A DNA stretch of 36,490 nucleotides, from positions 1-36,490 of the forward strand of contig CAYXWB010000012.1 of NCBI GenBank assembly GCA_964468515.1, read 5' to 3'. The translations under genes were made by a program, and so were the position numbers. A model generated the notes under the pieces. It saw only the letters and a list, made by a program, of their open reading frames with translations. It was not told the origin of the DNA and did not search any database. Source of the stretch: an uncultured Bradymonadales bacterium. Lineage in GTDB: Bacteria; Myxococcota_A; Bradymonadia; Bradymonadales; Bradymonadaceae. Below, one piece after another: positions 9,409 to 30,173 of the stretch (its first letter is position 1; the number at the start of each line of letters is the position of its first letter).

Positions 9409-11001
9409 TTAGTCGAGGCCGATGCGCACGGGGGCGAACGCAGGATCATCCTTCGGCTTGGGCGGCGTGACGATCTTGGAGGTCTTGGGCTGCGTCGTGG
9501 GCTTGGGCTTGGCGGTCACAGGGCGCTTGGGCGAAGGCTTGTCTTCGGGCGCGCTCGGGGGCTCATCCTGCGGGGGCGGCTCAGGCTTTGAGGGGGCAGC
9601 GCCGGCGCGGACAGGCGGCGCAGAGGGCGCATCATCCTGCGGGATGATCGGCTCAGGCGCAGGCATCACAAGCTCGGGCTTGACGGGTGAGGGCAGGGTG
9701 GTCAGCGCGTCCTCGACGGGTGGCGAGGGGGCGCTGGGGCGCAAAAGGTCGGTGCCAAAGAAGATGCCGATGGCGCCGAGCCCGAGGAGCACGCCGCCTA
9801 GCAGCAGCAAGGTGAGCCTGCGCGAGCGCTGGTGCTCGTGAAAGGCCCCGAGCTGGTCGGAGGTGATCGCGCTGGGCGGCGTGATGACAGGGCGCGCCTT
9901 GGCGTCAGCCAACCCCGCGGGGGTCATGGGGCCGCTCGGGCGAGGGTCGCGCTGCAGGCCGACGTGGGGCGGTGTGGTGGACATGAAGCCAGGGCGAGGG
10001 GCGATGGTGGTGGCGGGCGCGGCCTCCCACTCGCTGACCTCCGCGTTTGACAGGTTGGTGAGCGTGCTATGGGGCAGGCGCGCGGCGGCCCGGACGCTCG
10101 GCGCCTCGGTGGCCTTGCGGTGCTCCATCGCCACCTCCAGGCGGCGCAGCTCCTCGGCCAGTGACTTGCCGGATTGAAAGCGCTGGCTGGCGTCCTTGGC
10201 CATCAGCTTGTGCACGATCGCCTTCAGCTCAGGCGGCGCGTCCAGGCGCGTGATCGGCGGCAGCGGCGCGCTGATGTGCAGCATGATCGTGTCGATGGCC
10301 GTGTCGCCCCAGAACGGCAGCTTGCCCTCCAGCATCTCAAACAGCATGATCCCCAAGCTGTAGAGGTCGCTTGCTGGCATCAGATCGCGCTCACCGCGCG
10401 CCTGCTCCGGGCTGATATAGGCCGGGGTGCCGAACACCTCGCCCGCGCGCGTCAGCCGGTTTTCTTGCTCGGCGGTCAGATCTCCCGAGGAGTCGCGGAA
10501 GATACGCGCGATGCCAAAGTCGAGCACCTTCACCAGCTCCGAGTCATCCGTCATGCGCGCCAGCATGATGTTCTCGGGCTTCAGATCGCGATGCAAGATG
10601 CCCTGGTGGTGCGCGTGATCTAGCGCCAGCGCGATCTGGCGCGTGATCGCCACCGCCTCGGCTGCGGGTACGCCGTGGATCACACGCTTGTGCATGGGCT
10701 CCCCCTCGACGTACTCCATCACCGTATAAAACGCTTCAAGCTCCGTGGAGTAGCCAAAGTCGAACAGCGTGATGCAGTTGGGGTGATGCAGCCGCCCGAT
10801 CGCCTTGGCCTCGACCTCAAAGCGCTGCTGGATGCGATCGTGGGAGCTGAGCCCGGCGTGCAGCAGCTTGATCGCCACGGGGCGATCAACCATCAGCTGG
10901 ATCGCCTTGTAAACGGCCCCCATGCCTCCCTCCCCGATCTTGCGACCGAGGCTGTATTTGCCATCGATGACGGTGCCGACGGCGATCTCATCCTGTGTCA
11001 T
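9409..11001 (-). CDS. Transmembrane Ser/Thr protein kinase.
   Basis: Hanks kinase subdomains: GxGxxG ([12 protein letters not shown]), [21 protein letters not shown] and APE. A single TM helix ([21 protein letters not shown]) is followed by a Pro-rich extracytoplasmic tail. The ORF-track start at 11073 is GTG. The in-frame ATGs at 11043 and 11001 are alternatives, and 11001 gives the usual short lead-in before the kinase domain. Confidence 0.85.
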
Positions 11002-11221
11002 GCGCAAGAACGCTCGCAGGGTTGGCCACGGATGCGTCGCCATGAAGGCGACGCATCGGTGAGCTTCAGACACCGTTCACGCTGAACCACCTGGAGCGAA
11101 ACGCTCTCGCTTGGCGGCTCGGACGACGTGCTCTCGCGCCATCATATCGGAGGAAGCGCGACGCGACAAGCGACTTGCCTGCTGCCTCGCTCCCCTCACG
11201 GCCGCGCGCGCGCGTGGTGAG

Positions 11222-19032: not shown

Positions 19033-20496
19033 CTAGAACACGAGGCTCAGGGCCGCGCCGCGCGCGTCATCGACGAACGACGACACGCCGCCAAGCTCCA
19101 TGTTCGGGCGCGCCACCAGGTCGCCCTCGCTCAAGCCCATGATCATCATGCTCGTGGTGCACACGATGAACGTGGCGCCTTGCTCTTGCGCGCTGTCGAG
19201 CAGCTGCTCCAAGCTCATGACCTGACGATCCTTCATGATGCCTTGCATGATGGCGGTGCCTGCGCCGCCGAAGTTGAGCTTGCCGAGCTGCTGACGGCGC
19301 GGCCCGCGCGGCATCATCCACTTGAACAGGCGCTGAAAGAGGCTGGGCTTGGGCTCGCCGGCAGTGTGCGAGGCGCGGTCGGCGCGCAGCAGGTTCACGC
19401 CCCAGAATGAGAAGAAGATCTTCACGTCCATGCCGCTCGCGGCGGCCGCGTTGGCCGTCATCAGCGCGGCCATCAGCGCCTCAAAGTCATTGTGCAGCAC
19501 CAGCAGCGTCGCGCGGCGATCGTGCGGCTGCACGGCGGGCAGGCGCGCGGTGGGGTGCGACCTGCGCATCGCGCGCGGTGGGGCGTCCGCGTTGAGCTTG
19601 ATGCGCGCTTGGATGCAGGTGCCGCTCTCAAGCGACAGCACCTTGTGCTCGCGCCCAGCGCACCAGCGCGTCAGCGGCAGCAAGAAGTCGAGGTCATCAC
19701 AGCGCAGCGCGACCTCAGGGCCGGTCAGCGACAGCGCGTCGAGCGCGTCGAGCTGCGCTTGGCGCTGGTCTTGGCTCAGGCCGCTCAGGTTGAGCTGGAT
19801 CGCCGCTGGCGAGCGCTCGCTTGGCGCGCCGGTGTGCTGAGACGTCGCCGCAGGTGCATCGAGCGGTTGAGGGGTCGCGCCCAGCGGCGCGCTCGCGCCG
19901 CTGCCTGGCTCAGCGCTGATGTGGGCGCGCAGCGCGCCGTCATGCTCCTCCAGCGAGAGCAGCTGATAGCCCGCGCTGCGACACCAGCTCGTCAGGTCGA
20001 GCGCGAACGCAGGATCATCAGCGAGCACGATGAACTCGGCGTGAGGATCGTGCGCCTTGACGCGGCGCGCCTCTTTGGCCAGCGCCAGGGTGGGTGCGGG
20101 GCAGCTCATGCCGCGCATGTCGAGCAGGCGCGGCTCGCCGCGCTCTTGCTGCTCATCGCGGCCTCGGTCAAGCATACCCGTGAGCGCCTGCGCGGGCAGG
20201 GCGTGCGTGGTGGTGCGGTGAGGGCGAACGGGCTGCTCATCCAAAGCGTCTGCGTCGCCGTTCAGCGCCACCGTCGCGGCGTAGCCGCCTTGGCTGAGCG
20301 TGTCCAGCTGCACGAGGGTGGCGCTGGCGCTGCGACACCAGCTCTTGAGGTCCACCGGGAAGGCGTCATCATCGCACAGGATGCGCAGGCGCGCGGGCGC
20401 CCCGCGCAGCGCGCGCGCCTCGCGCGCGGTGTTGAGGATCGGCTCGGGGCAGCGCAGCCCGCGATAGTCAAGCTCTTGTGTGATGGTCAAGGTCAT
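19033..20496 (-). CDS. Fusion of three TusA-like domains and a C-terminal DsrE/DsrF-like domain, a putative persulfide/sulfur-carrier protein.
   Basis: Two canonical TusA CPxP motifs (LDYRGLRCPEPIL; LDMRGMSCPAPTL) and a third degenerate copy lacking the Cys (LNLSGLSQDQ). The C-terminal region resembles DsrE/DsrF-like proteins and keeps a conserved Cys (LLVLHNDFEALMAALMTANAAAASGMDVKIFFSFWGVNLL...GATFIVCTTSMMIMG). ATG at 20496 with GGAG upstream. Confidence 0.75.
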   Translation of the reverse strand: MTLTITQELDYRGLRCPEPILNTAREARALRGAPARLRILCDDDAFPVDLKSWCRSASATLVQLDTLSQGGYAATVALNGDADALDEQPVRPHRTTTHALPAQALTGMLDRGRDEQQERGEPRLLDMRGMSCPAPTLALAKEARRVKAHDPHAEFIVLADDPAFALDLTSWCRSAGYQLLSLEEHDGALRAHISAEPGSGASAPLGATPQPLDAPAATSQHTGAPSERSPAAIQLNLSGLSQDQRQAQLDALDALSLTGPEVALRCDDLDFLLPLTRWCAGREHKVLSLESGTCIQARIKLNADAPPRAMRRSHPTARLPAVQPHDRRATLLVLHNDFEALMAALMTANAAAASGMDVKIFFSFWGVNLLRADRASHTAGEPKPSLFQRLFKWMMPRGPRRQQLGKLNFGGAGTAIMQGIMKDRQVMSLEQLLDSAQEQGATFIVCTTSMMIMGLSEGDLVARPNMELGGVSSFVDDARGAALSLVF

Positions 20497-20555
20497 CGTC
20501 AGGCGCTCCGGTCATTCGTGACTGCTTCAGCGTGGTGCAAGGGGCCGCGTCGCGC

Positions 20556-22616
20556 TCAGGGCTCGTGATGCAGGATCATGAGCTGACGAAAGACGAGGGT
20601 GTATTCTTGCTCCAGCGCGTCGCTCATCTGGAGCGCGTCAGCCCACGCTTCTTGCCGGATGAGGCCCGCGACGAGCTCAGCGAGGCGGCCGAGCTGGGCC
20701 GCGTCGATGCCTCGGGAGGCCTCGGTGATCTGCGCGCAGTGCAGGCGCGCCGCGTGCGCGTGGCGCAGCTCACAGGCCTCTTGGAGCGCGCTGAGCCAGT
20801 TGGGCATGTGGCCGATGATCCCCTCGATGATCTCGCGCCGCGTGGCGCTTGGCAGCGGCGTGAGCGAGGTCAGCGAGGCGCCTCGCGGCGCCAGGAGCTT
20901 GGCCACATGCTCGGACAAGGTGGTGATCGCCTCGATCGGGATCGCGCGCAGCGTGCGCGTCCCCTTGCGCGCCATGAGCGCCTCGGGATGCGCCGTGAGC
21001 ACCAGCAGCGGGCGCGGATCATCGGCCGCCGCGTTGAGCAGCCATTGCGCGCTGACTGAGCCATCAAGCGCGCGATCTGACAGCAACATCAGCGCGTCCC
21101 AGCCCCCCTCGCCGGCCCGCGTCATCAGCGCGTCTGGCGTCTCACACCAGACGATGTCCCAACGCAGCGCGCTGAGCTGCGCGCGCACCAGCTCACGCAA
21201 GACGGGGTTGTCATCCCAGATCAACAAGGTCTGAGGTGGCGTCTCGGGCAGCTCATGCGCGCTCGGGCTAGCGTGCAGCGCCACGCTGTGGCGCGCGAAC
21301 TCACCTGAGCTAGGCCGCGTGAACTCGCCAGAGGTGGGCCGCGTGAAGTGGCCTGAGCTGGTAGGGCGTCTCAGCAGCGCGCGCGCGGGCGCGTCGCGCA
21401 AGGTAGCGGCCACGTCGTGCTCGTGCTGCTCGCGCGCTGCTGAGGCGCGCGGCGCGGCGCGCATCGTCAGCATGGCCTCGGGCGTCGCGTCGTCGCTCGT
21501 GGCCTCCGAGCTCTGGGCGCCGACGCCCATGCCAGGGTTGGTGCGTGTGAAGGGGGCGGGCGCGGCGTGAGGCAGCTTCGCGCCCCTCAACGCGCTGGTG
21601 CCTGCGACGGGCGTCATCTGGCGCGTCCCGGCGCTCACCCACCATGACGGCGGCAGCGCCTCCTGCTGACGCAGCTGCTGCAGCGCGCTTAGCAGCTGGC
21701 GCGCGCTTGGTCGATCATCGGCGCTCGGTGACAACATCGCGCCCAGCAGCTGATCCAGCGCCTGCGGCAGCCGCGGCTGCACCGCGCGCGCCGAGGGGGC
21801 GGTGGTCGAGCGCGCGTGATGATCAAACAAGCTCGGCAGGCTCGTCACATGCGCCAGCAGCTCTCGCCCCGTGAGCGCCCACCACAAGATCGCCCCCAAG
21901 CTATAGATGTCAGAGGCGTGGCGCGCCTGCCCGACCAGCTGCTCGGGCGCCATATAACGCGGGGTGCCCAGCAGCTCCTGGCGCACCGTGGACGCGTCGC
22001 CCAGATGCGCCACGCCAAAGTCCAAGAGCGTGAAGTGCAGCTGCAGCGGCCCATCGCCTCGACTCACCATGATGTTATATGGCGTCACGTCGCGGTGGAT
22101 GATGTTCGCCTCGTGGATCGCCGCGAGCGCTTGCGCTGCCTGCTCCCACAGCTGCAGCAGCGCGCTCCATCGCAGCGGCTTGCCGCGCTCTAAATGCGCC
22201 GCTAGCGTGCTCCCCTCCACATACGCCATCGCCATCGCGGGCAGCCCCTGCGGCGTCTCTCCCACCATATATACGGTCGCTAAGTTCGGGTGCTGCACCC
22301 GCGTTGAGGCGCGAAACTCGATCGCGAAGCGCTCGCGTATTGTCTCCCCCTGCGGGCTGCTCATCAACGCCTCATGCGCGATCTTCACCACCGCATGCCG
22401 ATCCGTCCCATCCTGCGTCGCCAGATACACCCGCGCAAACGCGCCCTCTCCGAGCGGGCGCTGCAGCGTGAAACCTCCCAAAACGTGTGTCCCAATGCAC
22501 GCGTCTTGATGCGCAGGCAGCGGCTCTTCTGAGGTCGCTGAGGTCGCTGAAGTCGCTGAGGTCGCTGAGGTCGAAGTCGCGCGCGTGTCGCTGAGCTCGT
22601 GTTCAAAATGGGGCAT
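20556..22616 (-). CDS. Ser/Thr protein kinase with C-terminal receiver-like (REC) and Hpt-like domains.
   Basis: N-terminal Hanks kinase (GEGAFARVY, VVKIA, HRDVTPYNIMV, DFGVAH, APE). A Pro/Ala-rich linker follows. The C-terminus has a REC-like fold (LLIWDDNPVLRELV...WDALMLLSDRAL...LLVLTAH) and an Hpt-like helix (LRHAHAARLHCAQITEASRGIDAAQLGRLAELV). It lies 59 nt upstream of, and co-oriented with, the TusA-DsrE gene. Confidence 0.8.
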   Translation of the reverse strand: MPHFEHELSDTRATSTSATSATSATSATSEEPLPAHQDACIGTHVLGGFTLQRPLGEGAFARVYLATQDGTDRHAVVKIAHEALMSSPQGETIRERFAIEFRASTRVQHPNLATVYMVGETPQGLPAMAMAYVEGSTLAAHLERGKPLRWSALLQLWEQAAQALAAIHEANIIHRDVTPYNIMVSRGDGPLQLHFTLLDFGVAHLGDASTVRQELLGTPRYMAPEQLVGQARHASDIYSLGAILWWALTGRELLAHVTSLPSLFDHHARSTTAPSARAVQPRLPQALDQLLGAMLSPSADDRPSARQLLSALQQLRQQEALPPSWWVSAGTRQMTPVAGTSALRGAKLPHAAPAPFTRTNPGMGVGAQSSEATSDDATPEAMLTMRAAPRASAAREQHEHDVAATLRDAPARALLRRPTSSGHFTRPTSGEFTRPSSGEFARHSVALHASPSAHELPETPPQTLLIWDDNPVLRELVRAQLSALRWDIVWCETPDALMTRAGEGGWDALMLLSDRALDGSVSAQWLLNAAADDPRPLLVLTAHPEALMARKGTRTLRAIPIEAITTLSEHVAKLLAPRGASLTSLTPLPSATRREIIEGIIGHMPNWLSALQEACELRHAHAARLHCAQITEASRGIDAAQLGRLAELVAGLIRQEAWADALQMSDALEQEYTLVFRQLMILHHEP
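22531..22580 (-). repeat. In-frame 9-bp tandem repeat of about 5.3 copies, encoding (ATS)n at the kinase N-terminus.
   Basis: gaggtcgct gaggtcgct gaagtcgct gaggtcgct gaggtcgaa. On the coding strand it translates to TSATSATSATSATS. Confidence 0.6.
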
Positions 22617-28481: not shown

Positions 28482-28574
28482 GCGTCGCGGCGCGATTGAT
28501 CAGCGCTCGCTTTCTGGATAGGCTGACGGTGAGCTATTATAGCGTGAGCTTTCTTGCGAACTGACGAGGCACCC

Positions 28575-30173
28575 ATGATGCGCGCGATGCCACGACCTTT
28601 GATCATCAGCCCGCTGTGTGTGGCGCTGCTCCTGTTGGGGCTAGGATGCTCTCAGGGCGAGTCCACCGCGCCGCGCCCTCAGCGCCCCCCAGATGACACC
28701 TCGGACATGGACATGGGCCCAGGTGTTGACGTGCCTCCCGATCAACCTCTGGCGGTGATCCCCGATGAGGGCTGCGATCCCGAGGCCCCTGATGAGCCCG
28801 ATGGTGACGCGCTCGACACCAACTGCGACGGGATCGACGGCGACATCATGCGCAGCATCTTCGTCGCCTCGTACGGCGATGACGCCAACCCTGGCACGCG
28901 CCAAGCGCCCAAGAAGTCGATCCAAGCCGCCATTGATCTGGCCGCGACGGATGACTCGCGCCAGTGGGTCTTGGTCGAGGACGGGCTCTATGAGGGTGGG
29001 ATTCGGCTGGTCAACGGCGTGAACATCACGGGCGGCTACCAGCTGGGCTGGCGCCGCACCCCTGACAGCTTCGCGACGATTCGCGGCGCAAACCCCGCCA
29101 TCTCGGCAGTAGACCTGCCCGACGCGCTCACCTTGATGAACTTAGAGGTGCAACCTGGCGAGGTGATGCCCGGAGAGACGGTCATCACGATGGCGCTGGA
29201 GCGCAGCCCCGGCGTGCATTTGGAGCGGGTACGGCTCATCGGCGGCGCGGGCGGCCCGGGCGCGCGCGGCATGCAGGGCGTCACTGGGGAGCTGGGCCGT
29301 CAAGGCGCGCGCGGTGGTAATGGCGTGCGCGACAGCGACGCGTGGCTCTGCTCAAATAACCCACAGCCCACCCCTGGTGGCGGCGGCGGCGGCATGTGCG
29401 GCGGCGCCGATGGTGCGCGCGGCGGCGCGCCGGGCCACTTTAACAATGGTGGCTCTGCAGGCGCGCCAGGCAGCGGCGGCGCCGCAGGCGGCGCGGGCGG
29501 CGCGTCATCGCGTGCGGGCGGTGGCAACGGCGCCGCTGGCGGGCGCGGCGCCGCAGGTGGCCCTGGTACCGGTGGCTTGAACACGGGGCGCTTTGAGGGG
29601 CGTCAGTGGCTTGGGCAGGCGGGTCACCCTGGCGAGAAGGGCACCTCCGGCGCCTCAGGCGGCGGCGGCGGTGGCGGCGGCGGCGGCGGTCAAGGCACCA
29701 CCGAGTGCAAAGCCTGGGGCGGCGCTGGCGGCGGTGGCGGCTCGGGCGGCTGCGGTGGCGAGGGCGGCTCAGGTGGCCAAGCCGGTGGCGCGTCTGTCGT
29801 GCTGTTCCTCATCGACAGCGACATCACCATGAGCCAATGCCGCGTGTTTGTCGGCGCGGGCGGCGCGGGCGGCGAGGGTGGCGCGGGCGGTGTGGGTGGC
29901 CAAGGCGGCGAGGGCGGTGTGGGCGGCGGTCGCTTCAACAACAGCGGTCAAGGTGGCCTCGGTGGCCCTGGCGGTCAAGGTGGCCCCGGCGGTCAAGGCG
30001 GCGGCGGCGCGGGCGGTCCCGCGTTTGGCATCTACACCAACGTCGCGCTGTCTCAAGAGACAGGCTTTGAGCTGGTCGATGGCTCGGGCGGCTTCGGGGG
30101 CAACGGGCTTGGCGCCGAGGGGCGCGGCGCCGTCGGCGCCACGCGCGCCATTCAGGTCGGGCCTATCGATTGA
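28575..30173 (+). CDS. Secreted lipoprotein with a MopE-like Cys/Asp motif, a right-handed beta-helix N-domain and a long Gly-rich low-complexity region.
   Basis: The ORF-track start at 28554 is TTG. The ATG at 28575 has GACGAGG upstream. Signal peptide plus Cys (LLLLGLGCSQ). DTNCDGIDGD motif. Beta-helix-like region (SIQAAIDLAATDDSRQWVLVEDGLYEGGIRLVNGVNITGG). Then about 260 aa of GGxGG repeats. Confidence 0.65.
   Translation: MMRAMPRPLIISPLCVALLLLGLGCSQGESTAPRPQRPPDDTSDMDMGPGVDVPPDQPLAVIPDEGCDPEAPDEPDGDALDTNCDGIDGDIMRSIFVASYGDDANPGTRQAPKKSIQAAIDLAATDDSRQWVLVEDGLYEGGIRLVNGVNITGGYQLGWRRTPDSFATIRGANPAISAVDLPDALTLMNLEVQPGEVMPGETVITMALERSPGVHLERVRLIGGAGGPGARGMQGVTGELGRQGARGGNGVRDSDAWLCSNNPQPTPGGGGGGMCGGADGARGGAPGHFNNGGSAGAPGSGGAAGGAGGASSRAGGGNGAAGGRGAAGGPGTGGLNTGRFEGRQWLGQAGHPGEKGTSGASGGGGGGGGGGGQGTTECKAWGGAGGGGGSGGCGGEGGSGGQAGGASVVLFLIDSDITMSQCRVFVGAGGAGGEGGAGGVGGQGGEGGVGGGRFNNSGQGGLGGPGGQGGPGGQGGGGAGGPAFGIYTNVALSQETGFELVDGSGGFGGNGLGAEGRGAVGATRAIQVGPID
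29240..30030 (+). repeat. GGC/GGT-codon low-complexity repeat tract inside the lipoprotein gene.
   Basis: Runs such as ggcggcggcggtggcggcggcggcggt. The alternative frames give the Arg/Trp-rich and Pro-rich ORF-track artefacts. Confidence 0.5.

Follow-up and report, generated by a model that had tools for sequence, protein, structure and literature searches.

What is the purpose of a protein that strings three TusA-like sulfur-carrier domains and a DsrE-like domain into a single polypeptide, and why should its gene sit immediately beside that of a Ser/Thr kinase? The question is raised by a gene (19033..20496, minus strand; 487 aa) in a 36,490-nt stretch of DNA—here called the window—from an uncultured Bradymonadales bacterium (GenBank assembly GCA_964468515.1, contig CAYXWB010000012.1). 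A first-pass annotation, made from the DNA sequence without database searches, described the encoded protein (hereafter the carrier) as a possible intramolecular sulfur relay, associated in some way with the product of the kinase gene upstream (hereafter the partner kinase).

As far as is known, the main readers of bacterial sulfane-sulfur and persulfide signals are transcriptional repressors such as CstR and SqrR, along with a small number of histidine kinases. A sulfur relay hard-wired to a eukaryotic-like Ser/Thr kinase would, if true, represent a different route by which reactive sulfur species could act on protein phosphorylation, and the module described here comes from a phylum noted for its large kinomes and complex behaviour. 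Our analysis suggests an undescribed link of this kind between sulfur trafficking and kinase signalling: we hold, with modest confidence, that the carrier is a fused sulfane-sulfur relay of the rhd-tusA-dsrE2 type, functionally coupled to the partner kinase, and we prefer to see it as the kinase's input. Domain fusion alone is routine and the kinase coupling is the part of interest; if the link to the kinase were mere co-expression, the carrier would be just another multidomain sulfurtransferase.

Domain architecture of the carrier

The carrier open reading frame has a G + C content at third codon positions of 0.87 in a window of 67% G + C, as expected of a real gene, and its product is predicted to be a soluble, cytoplasmic protein. 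Pfam searches, profile–profile alignment with hhalign and an AlphaFold2 (AF2) monomer model, run with a 35-sequence alignment, agree on three TusA-like domains and a DsrE-like domain in one reading frame, arranged as TusA(Cys16)–TusA(Cys132)–Cys-less TusA-like–DsrE_2(Cys446), which bears out the first-pass annotation, including its count of two intact CPxP cysteines and one Cys-less copy. The domains are joined by linkers that are disordered in the model (residues 91–119, 199–228 and 307–322), hold runs such as RTTTH and TSQHTGAPSERS, and are poorly conserved in both sequence and length across homologues.

TusA domain 1 (residues 5–78; 20263..20484, minus strand) carries Cys16 in a CPEP motif (codon 20449–20451) and TusA domain 2 (residues 123–195; 19912..20130, minus strand) carries Cys132 in CPAP. 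When the domains were scanned separately, PF01206 matched residues 8–76 (E 1e-13, 51.3 bits) and residues 125–193 (E 4e-15, 55.7 bits), against a cutoff of 28.6 bits. All three TusA domains are modelled as β-α-β-α-β-β two-layer α/β sandwiches with a predicted local distance difference test score (pLDDT) >90 (about 90–94 for domain 1). Cys132 aligns with Cys19 of Escherichia coli TusA (1dcj/3lvj_C), and domain 2 superposes on 3lvj_C—the TusA of the IscS–TusA complex—with a Foldseek template modelling (TM) score of 0.84 and a root-mean-square deviation of 1.6. As a separate observation, the carrier has Tyr11 (codon 20464–20466) and Met127 (codon 20116–20118) at sites where most orthologues have a second cysteine, five residues before the CPxP cysteine (DCRGxxCPxP); this second cysteine is present in 66–71% of the carrier family and also in the TusA domains of proteins that combine a coenzyme A disulfide reductase (CoADR) with rhodanese (Rhd), TusA and DsrE domains. 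Identity as the selenium-metabolism protein YedF was considered and rejected, the only match being N-terminal and sub-threshold (23 bits vs 110).

The third copy (residues 233–300; 19597..19800, minus strand) found no match when scanned alone against Pfam. With domain 1 it has 30% identity and a common DD..F..L..WC pattern, and hhalign aligned its family profile with domain 1 at 98.1% probability (E 1e-13) and with domain 2 at 98.5% probability (E 2e-15); its modelled fold has the same topology as domains 1 and 2 (pLDDT 91–97). Judged by profile and predicted fold, domain 3 is a true TusA homologue, and because SQDQ stands in place of CPxP we class it as a pseudo-TusA.

The C-terminal domain (residues 328–486; 19039..19515, minus strand) is a strong match to the DsrE-family model DrsE_2 (PF13686; residues 328–485, E 1.6e-33, 116.3 bits against a cutoff of 25). 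Among solved structures it is closest to 3pnx (Swol_2425; E 4.6e-19, Foldseek TM 0.91), followed by 2qs7 (SSO1126, DsrE2B type; TM 0.80) and 3mc3 (DsrE3A; TM 0.78). Cys446 (codon 19159–19161), in the motif FIVCTTSM, aligns with the cysteines of 3pnx (YACQLS) and 2qs7 (ACSTT), the two closest solved DsrE-family proteins, and so fits the active-site cysteine common to all DsrE groups (PMC4175335).

The likeness of the TusA domains to E. coli TusA, down to Cys19 and the fold of 3lvj_C, might be taken to mean that the carrier delivers sulfur from a cysteine desulfurase to a biosynthetic end, such as tRNA 2-thiouridine, the molybdenum cofactor or a thiolated natural product. The carrier nevertheless falls below the cutoff of the NCBIfam TusA equivalog NF001423 (62.9 vs 78 bits), its fusion partner is of the DsrE_2 type rather than the TusD type, no TusBCDE, MnmA, IscS, Moa or biosynthetic cluster genes occur in the window, and in a clustering of related loci the kinase was the one conserved gene group to emerge (with the rhodanese chained to the carrier group). 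We give biosynthetic delivery a very slim chance.

Conservation of the carrier family

A search of 5.8 billion proteins returned 95 homologues of the carrier, and when 1.84 billion cluster representatives were searched exhaustively, 134 matched at E ≤ 1e-30, several tens of them full-length. The named sources of homologues are Myxococcota (Sandaracinaceae, Nannocystaceae, Kofleriaceae and Polyangiaceae), and the genome loci with relatives of the carrier include those of Plesiocystis pacifica, Enhygromyxa and Haliangium. On this sampling of sequences, the multi-TusA/DsrE carrier family appears to be small and mostly confined to Myxococcota.

The exact order TusA(Cys)–TusA(Cys)–TusA*(no Cys)–DsrE recurs in 74 of the 95 homologues, while five have three active copies. 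Across the genome loci, the number of active TusA copies per carrier ranges from one to four, and this variation between lineages indicates ongoing tandem domain duplication and loss. Four active copies were seen at locus L010, three at L021, L023 and L028, and a single one at L014, L017 and L024; one closed 11.1-Mb genome encodes two paralogous carriers (L081, P0033/P0045). What stays constant throughout the family is the Cys-less copy directly before the DsrE domain.

Among 77 aligned full-length members, overall identity is only about 36%, yet Cys16 is conserved in 99%, Cys132 in 97% and Cys446 in 99%, so the CPxP cysteines hold up across orthologues and the cysteine of FIVCTTSM is as conserved as the first-pass annotation had supposed. 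It could be argued that the domains have decayed into remnants that no longer handle sulfur but serve, for instance, as a scaffold, their cysteines being structural: one of the three TusA copies has lost its catalytic motif, and DsrE2B, the closest characterised subgroup to the carrier's DsrE domain, was unreactive with all sulfur compounds tested in vitro (PMC4175335). Against this idea stand the near-invariance of the three cysteines in a family so divergent, the retention of the CPxP context and the contrast with the Cys-less domain, which drifts freely among homologues and keeps only Trp278 (about 90%); in addition, most relatives encode a catalytically intact rhodanese alongside the carrier (see below). 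We find the remnant explanation hardly credible.

A conserved operon of kinase and carrier

The partner kinase gene (20556..22616, minus strand; 686 aa) lies upstream of the carrier gene in the same orientation. The 59-nt spacer between them (20497..20555, minus strand) has a GGAG sequence 9 nt before the carrier ATG and no terminator, and no sigma-70-like promoters or terminators were found between the two genes. We compared the gene context of 30 carrier-related loci with that of 50 non-myxococcal loci. In the related loci, the gene immediately upstream of the carrier, in the same orientation and −4 to +66 nt away, encodes an orthologous Hanks-type kinase: tblastn with the kinase domain from the window found it at 24 of the 30 loci, and at four more the kinase falls into the same cluster but is divergent or truncated, giving a total of about 28/30. 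The remaining two loci are a 2.7-kb contig and a locus of different architecture. By contrast, no kinase was found within 8 kb at any of the 50 non-myxococcal loci. The arrangement that the first-pass annotation had noticed is thus no chance adjacency; it is a strongly conserved operon. A 4-nt overlap of stop and start is frequent—suggesting translational coupling—and occurs also in the kinase–carrier pair of the closed 11.1-Mb genome. Plesiocystis pacifica SIR-1, a culturable species, likewise has the pair (L016). At two loci (L001 and L020), kinases flank the carrier on both sides.

Besides the kinase, the only conserved neighbour of the carrier among the 30 loci is a rhodanese gene, present downstream in 20 of them (L002, L004–L012, L014, L015, L017, L020–L025 and L028). 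It lies about 0–100 nt from the carrier, with a gap of 0–21 nt in the eight loci whose gene calls show it as the next gene downstream; the exception is L020, where it lies about 2.3 kb away, beyond the second kinase. Its product (203–242 aa) consists of a rhodanese domain (PF00581) and a helical tail, and the C-x-SGRRS active-site loop is intact in all eight of the downstream rhodaneses examined. Of the sulfur-related neighbours that the first-pass annotation proposed to look for, the rhodanese was found in relatives; Hdr genes were not seen nearby, nor were Dsr genes.

This tail, a helical domain of about 100 aa at the C terminus of the rhodanese, is conserved, carries an ‘SCFVAE’ motif and has no Pfam match. 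Kinship of this tail with the pseudo-HPt domain of the partner kinase (described below) was rejected (hhalign probability 0.8%). The downstream gene had clustered with the carrier as an apparent paralogue (‘c0’); it proved to be the rhodanese with its helical domain and not a DsrE protein, the grouping being a single-linkage artefact.

These neighbours bear on the suggestion that the carrier is a purely metabolic sulfurtransferase for detoxification of reactive sulfur, with a kinase that is merely co-expressed and has no direct interplay with it. In support, the closest TusA–DrsE_2 units outside the myxobacteria sit in CoADR-Rhd-TusA-DsrE enzymes (PMC6158253), and the TusA–DsrE fusion CstA is described as part of a sulfide-stress operon (PMC9918477, PMC5480029). 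But no SQR, PDO, CstR, CstB, TauE or CoADR gene was found among the called genes of the window by Pfam; the kinase is the only conserved neighbour besides the rhodanese and often overlaps the carrier by 4 nt; and the partner kinases form an orthologous group of their own, with a family-specific pseudo-HPt tail. On balance, we consider a purely metabolic role distinctly unlikely.

The partner kinase

The partner kinase is a Hanks-type Ser/Thr kinase (Pkinase, E 6e-39, 134.5 bits). Its catalytic domain (residues 44–320; 21657..22487, minus strand) has Lys78, Asp176 of the HRD motif and Asp199 of the DFG motif; among 22 kinase orthologues, Lys78 and Asp199 are invariant and Asp176 is nearly so, and to judge from these residues the enzyme looks catalytically competent. 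The catalytic loop reads HRDVTPYN in the window and HRD(V/L)(S/T)PxN in orthologues, not HRDxKPxN, so that Thr or Ser takes the place of the catalytic-loop Lys; the β3 Lys, HRD, DFG and APE motifs are intact. No transmembrane segment or recognisable sensor domain was found in the protein.

The first-pass annotation read this gene as a kinase–REC–Hpt fusion, a description that stands at the level of homology, on profiles and AF2 folds, but not at the level of the phospho-acceptor residues. In the window protein Pfam missed both C-terminal domains, and a search with the C-terminal 254 aa alone found no homologues; profiles of this region were built from related loci and from full-length kinase matches. 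After a disordered stretch (residues 328–457), the AF2 model shows a (βα)5 domain, a degenerate receiver (REC) domain (residues 462–575; 20892..21233, minus strand), the profile of which matched NtrC1 (1zy2, E 4e-11) and hundreds more receivers in the PDB. The Asp-acceptor column of this domain holds Ala, Thr or Ser in 15 of the 22 orthologues (Ser513 in the window kinase); the very next residue is acidic in 15/22, so a one-residue register shift is possible. The receiver is followed by a four-helix bundle (residues 590–683; 20568..20849, minus strand; pLDDT 86–96), the profile of which matched histidine-containing phosphotransfer (HPt) domains, including 7c1i (E 1e-6) and ArcB (1a0b, E 6e-4) as well as plant AHPs and LuxU; several orthologues carry precomputed Pfam Hpt matches. 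None of the 22 has His in the phospho-His column, where the window kinase has Ala628, and we refer to the bundle as a pseudo-HPt. With neither acceptor residue conserved, canonical phosphorelay is unlikely, and the two degenerate modules probably act as surfaces for binding other proteins. The REC domain is missing from some members of the partner-kinase family.

A cysteine, Cys627, stands just before the HPt His position and is conserved in 18 of the 22 kinases, and in 7/13 of the locus-derived set. This invites a more specific proposal, in which rhodanese sulfur would pass through the TusA arms to Cys446 and on to Cys627 of the kinase, persulfidation switching the Ser/Thr kinase. If true, a Cys-persulfide would replace His~P on an HPt scaffold and tie reactive sulfur species to Hanks-kinase signalling. 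Canonical HPt domains have a small residue (Gly, Ala or Val) just before the phospho-His. We rate the proposal as a long shot because the residues that replace Cys627 in other orthologues (Ala, Gly, Leu or Ile) fit a packing role.

Two further features of the kinases deserve record. A second kinase subtype lies upstream of the carrier at L012, L014, L017, L019, L020 and L027; it has no pseudo-HPt tail, its C-terminal domain carries motifs such as ‘VVLFGDLHVIL’ and ‘SRVLVSTH’, and the catalytic loop of the L019 and L020 kinases reads HGDVKPEN. In the window kinase, residues 14–29 (~22530–22575, minus strand) form a (Thr/Ala-Ser)n repeat, TSTSATSATSATSATS, which is modelled as disordered and absent in orthologues, so that the true kinase start codon may be further downstream.

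Proposed mechanism

The tight, lineage-specific operon and the nature of the kinase—without a sensor and with pseudo-modules in place of a phosphorelay—together argue for a functional partnership between kinase and carrier. In the mechanism that we propose, sulfur would be carried as persulfide (or thiosulfonate) on Cys16 and Cys132 of the two active TusA domains, and the flexible linkers would permit its exchange between these cysteines and Cys446. The rhodanese would load the relay in most relatives, and an unlinked donor would do so in the genome from which the window derives. The Cys-less copy, unable to carry sulfur at the canonical site, would presumably act as a docking or adaptor module. 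The intramolecular relay put forward at first pass fits all the evidence from domains, cysteines and folds.

Since the solved DsrE-family proteins 2qs7 and 3mc3 are homotrimers (PMC4175335, PMC11094781), the DsrE domain of the carrier, by analogy, probably oligomerises into a trimer, making plausible a trimeric hub with six active tethered TusA arms. The sulfuration state of the carrier would be the input read by the kinase, which might in this way sense sulfane sulfur or reactive sulfur species.

The flow of information could run the other way, with the kinase phosphorylating the carrier, for example on its Ser/Thr/Pro-rich linkers, to switch sulfur trafficking, so that the relay would be the output of signalling. 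The conserved operon, the apparent catalytic competence of the kinase and the disordered linkers with their RTTTH-type runs are all compatible with such an arrangement. Yet the linkers are poorly conserved in sequence and length, no FHA or other phospho-binding module was found, and the kinase would be left with no other recognisable input domain. We regard kinase gating of the carrier as possible but unlikely, and prefer the reading in which the carrier is the input of the kinase.

Several observations weigh against the carrier as a sulfur relay that feeds the kinase. The coupling is argued from synteny, a kind of evidence that cannot decide the direction of signalling. The predicted TM score (pTM) of the carrier model is 0.53, so the geometry between domains is not predicted. 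With 45 bits against a cutoff of 210, the carrier falls far below the NCBIfam DsrE2 equivalog NF047629; taken with its sub-cutoff TusA score, this makes it a member of the Pfam families rather than an orthologue of characterised proteins, and the DsrE2B proteins nearest to it are those reported as inert in vitro. Finally, no Hdr, Dsr, SQR, PDO, YeeE or cysteine desulfurase gene was found by Pfam among the called genes of the window, nor any rhodanese gene (best tblastn E = 0.1; Pfam of all called genes); the absence of the rhodanese from this locus means that the sulfur donor must be encoded elsewhere.

Other genes in the window

The remainder of the window resembles ordinary chromosome, with genes for UvrC, PrmC, MgtE, a 2-hydroxyacid dehydrogenase, a CDF transporter, an MMPL protein, RuvX, Mrr, YceG, LeuRS and an E1 dehydrogenase. 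A PCC-domain gene is convergent with the carrier, 18 nt from the carrier stop codon. Another Ser/Thr kinase gene, encoding a second Hanks-type enzyme of 554 aa (9409–11073, minus strand), lies outside the conserved module. The major vault protein (MVP)-like gene encodes a bacterial homologue of 836 aa (15002–17512, plus strand) with Pfam matches to MVP_shoulder (E 4e-25), Vault_3 and Band_7. An open reading frame of 539 aa (28554–30173, plus strand), missed by the gene caller based on third-position G + C content, has a lipoprotein-like signal and an extremely Gly-rich (GGxGG) C-terminal half. No Rfam RNA families were found in the window. A role in anti-phage defence was also rejected, as PADLOC gave no match for the carrier and only generic kinase-domain matches for the kinase.

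Comparison with known sulfurtransferase and signalling systems

The first-pass view of TusA and DsrE as normally separate proteins overstates the novelty of the carrier, as fusion of the two is not new. CstA of Staphylococcus aureus is a Rhodanese–TusA–DsrE fusion for which persulfide transfer from the rhodanese to the TusA domain is reported (Higgins et al., 2015, as cited in PMC9918477). Like the carrier, CstA has TusA and a DsrE-family domain in one polypeptide, and a rhodanese is part of the unit both in CstA and in the carrier module of relatives. The two differ in that CstA has a single TusA and begins with a rhodanese domain, whereas the carrier has three TusA domains, two active and one Cys-less, and, by Pfam, no rhodanese domain within the polypeptide. 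The cst operon to which CstA belongs is regulated by CstR and also encodes CstB and SQR, whereas the partner of the carrier is a Hanks kinase, with no SQR or PDO nearby.

In sulfur oxidisers, rhd-tusA-dsrE2 synteny is associated with transfer in the order Rhd → TusA → DsrE (PMC4175335, PMC11094781); such sets include Alvin_2599–2601 of Allochromatium vinosum and dsrE3A-dsrE2B-tusA of Metallosphaera (PMC4175335, PMC11094781). The carrier module of relatives draws on the same three protein families, again with the rhodanese adjacent, and the DsrE domain of the carrier is closest to the DsrE2B/Swol_2425 type. The rhd-tusA-dsrE2 genes, however, are separate, encode single-domain proteins and are linked to Dsr or sHdr systems, whereas the carrier is fused, has tandem TusA domains and is linked to a kinase and not to Dsr or Hdr genes. 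The DsrE2 group is defined by linkage to Dsr or Hdr-like sulfur-oxidation genes (PMC4175335), a linkage that the carrier locus lacks. AvDsrE2A has been proposed to be membrane-associated, unlike the carrier, which is predicted to be soluble.

The nearest non-myxococcal relatives of the carrier are largely proteins of ~820 aa that end in TusA–DrsE_2 and, by Pfam, combine Pyr_redox_2 (CoADR-like), Rhodanese, TusA and DrsE_2 domains, an architecture described for Bacteroides fragilis BF638R_0572 (PMC6158253). Such proteins are common. They share the C-terminal TusA–DrsE_2 unit with the carrier; they differ from it in that the same chain also holds a flavoprotein disulfide reductase and a rhodanese, in that TusA occurs once, without a Cys-less companion, and in that no kinase lies within 8 kb (0/50 loci). 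Two-domain TusA–DrsE_2 proteins also exist (L063).

On the signalling side, the partner kinase resembles Hanks-type kinases equipped with phosphorelay modules in having genuine REC and HPt homologues, but unlike in working phosphorelay modules these are pseudo-modules. Our literature searches found no description of a TusA/DsrE–kinase module or of this multi-TusA family, and nothing relevant on myxobacterial TusA. Set beside these known systems, the carrier module is distinctive in its tandem TusA array, its obligatory Cys-less copy and its conserved Hanks-kinase partner, and the combination of tandem array and Cys-less copy offers a natural system in which to explore TusA–DsrE recognition and the function of DsrE2-type proteins.

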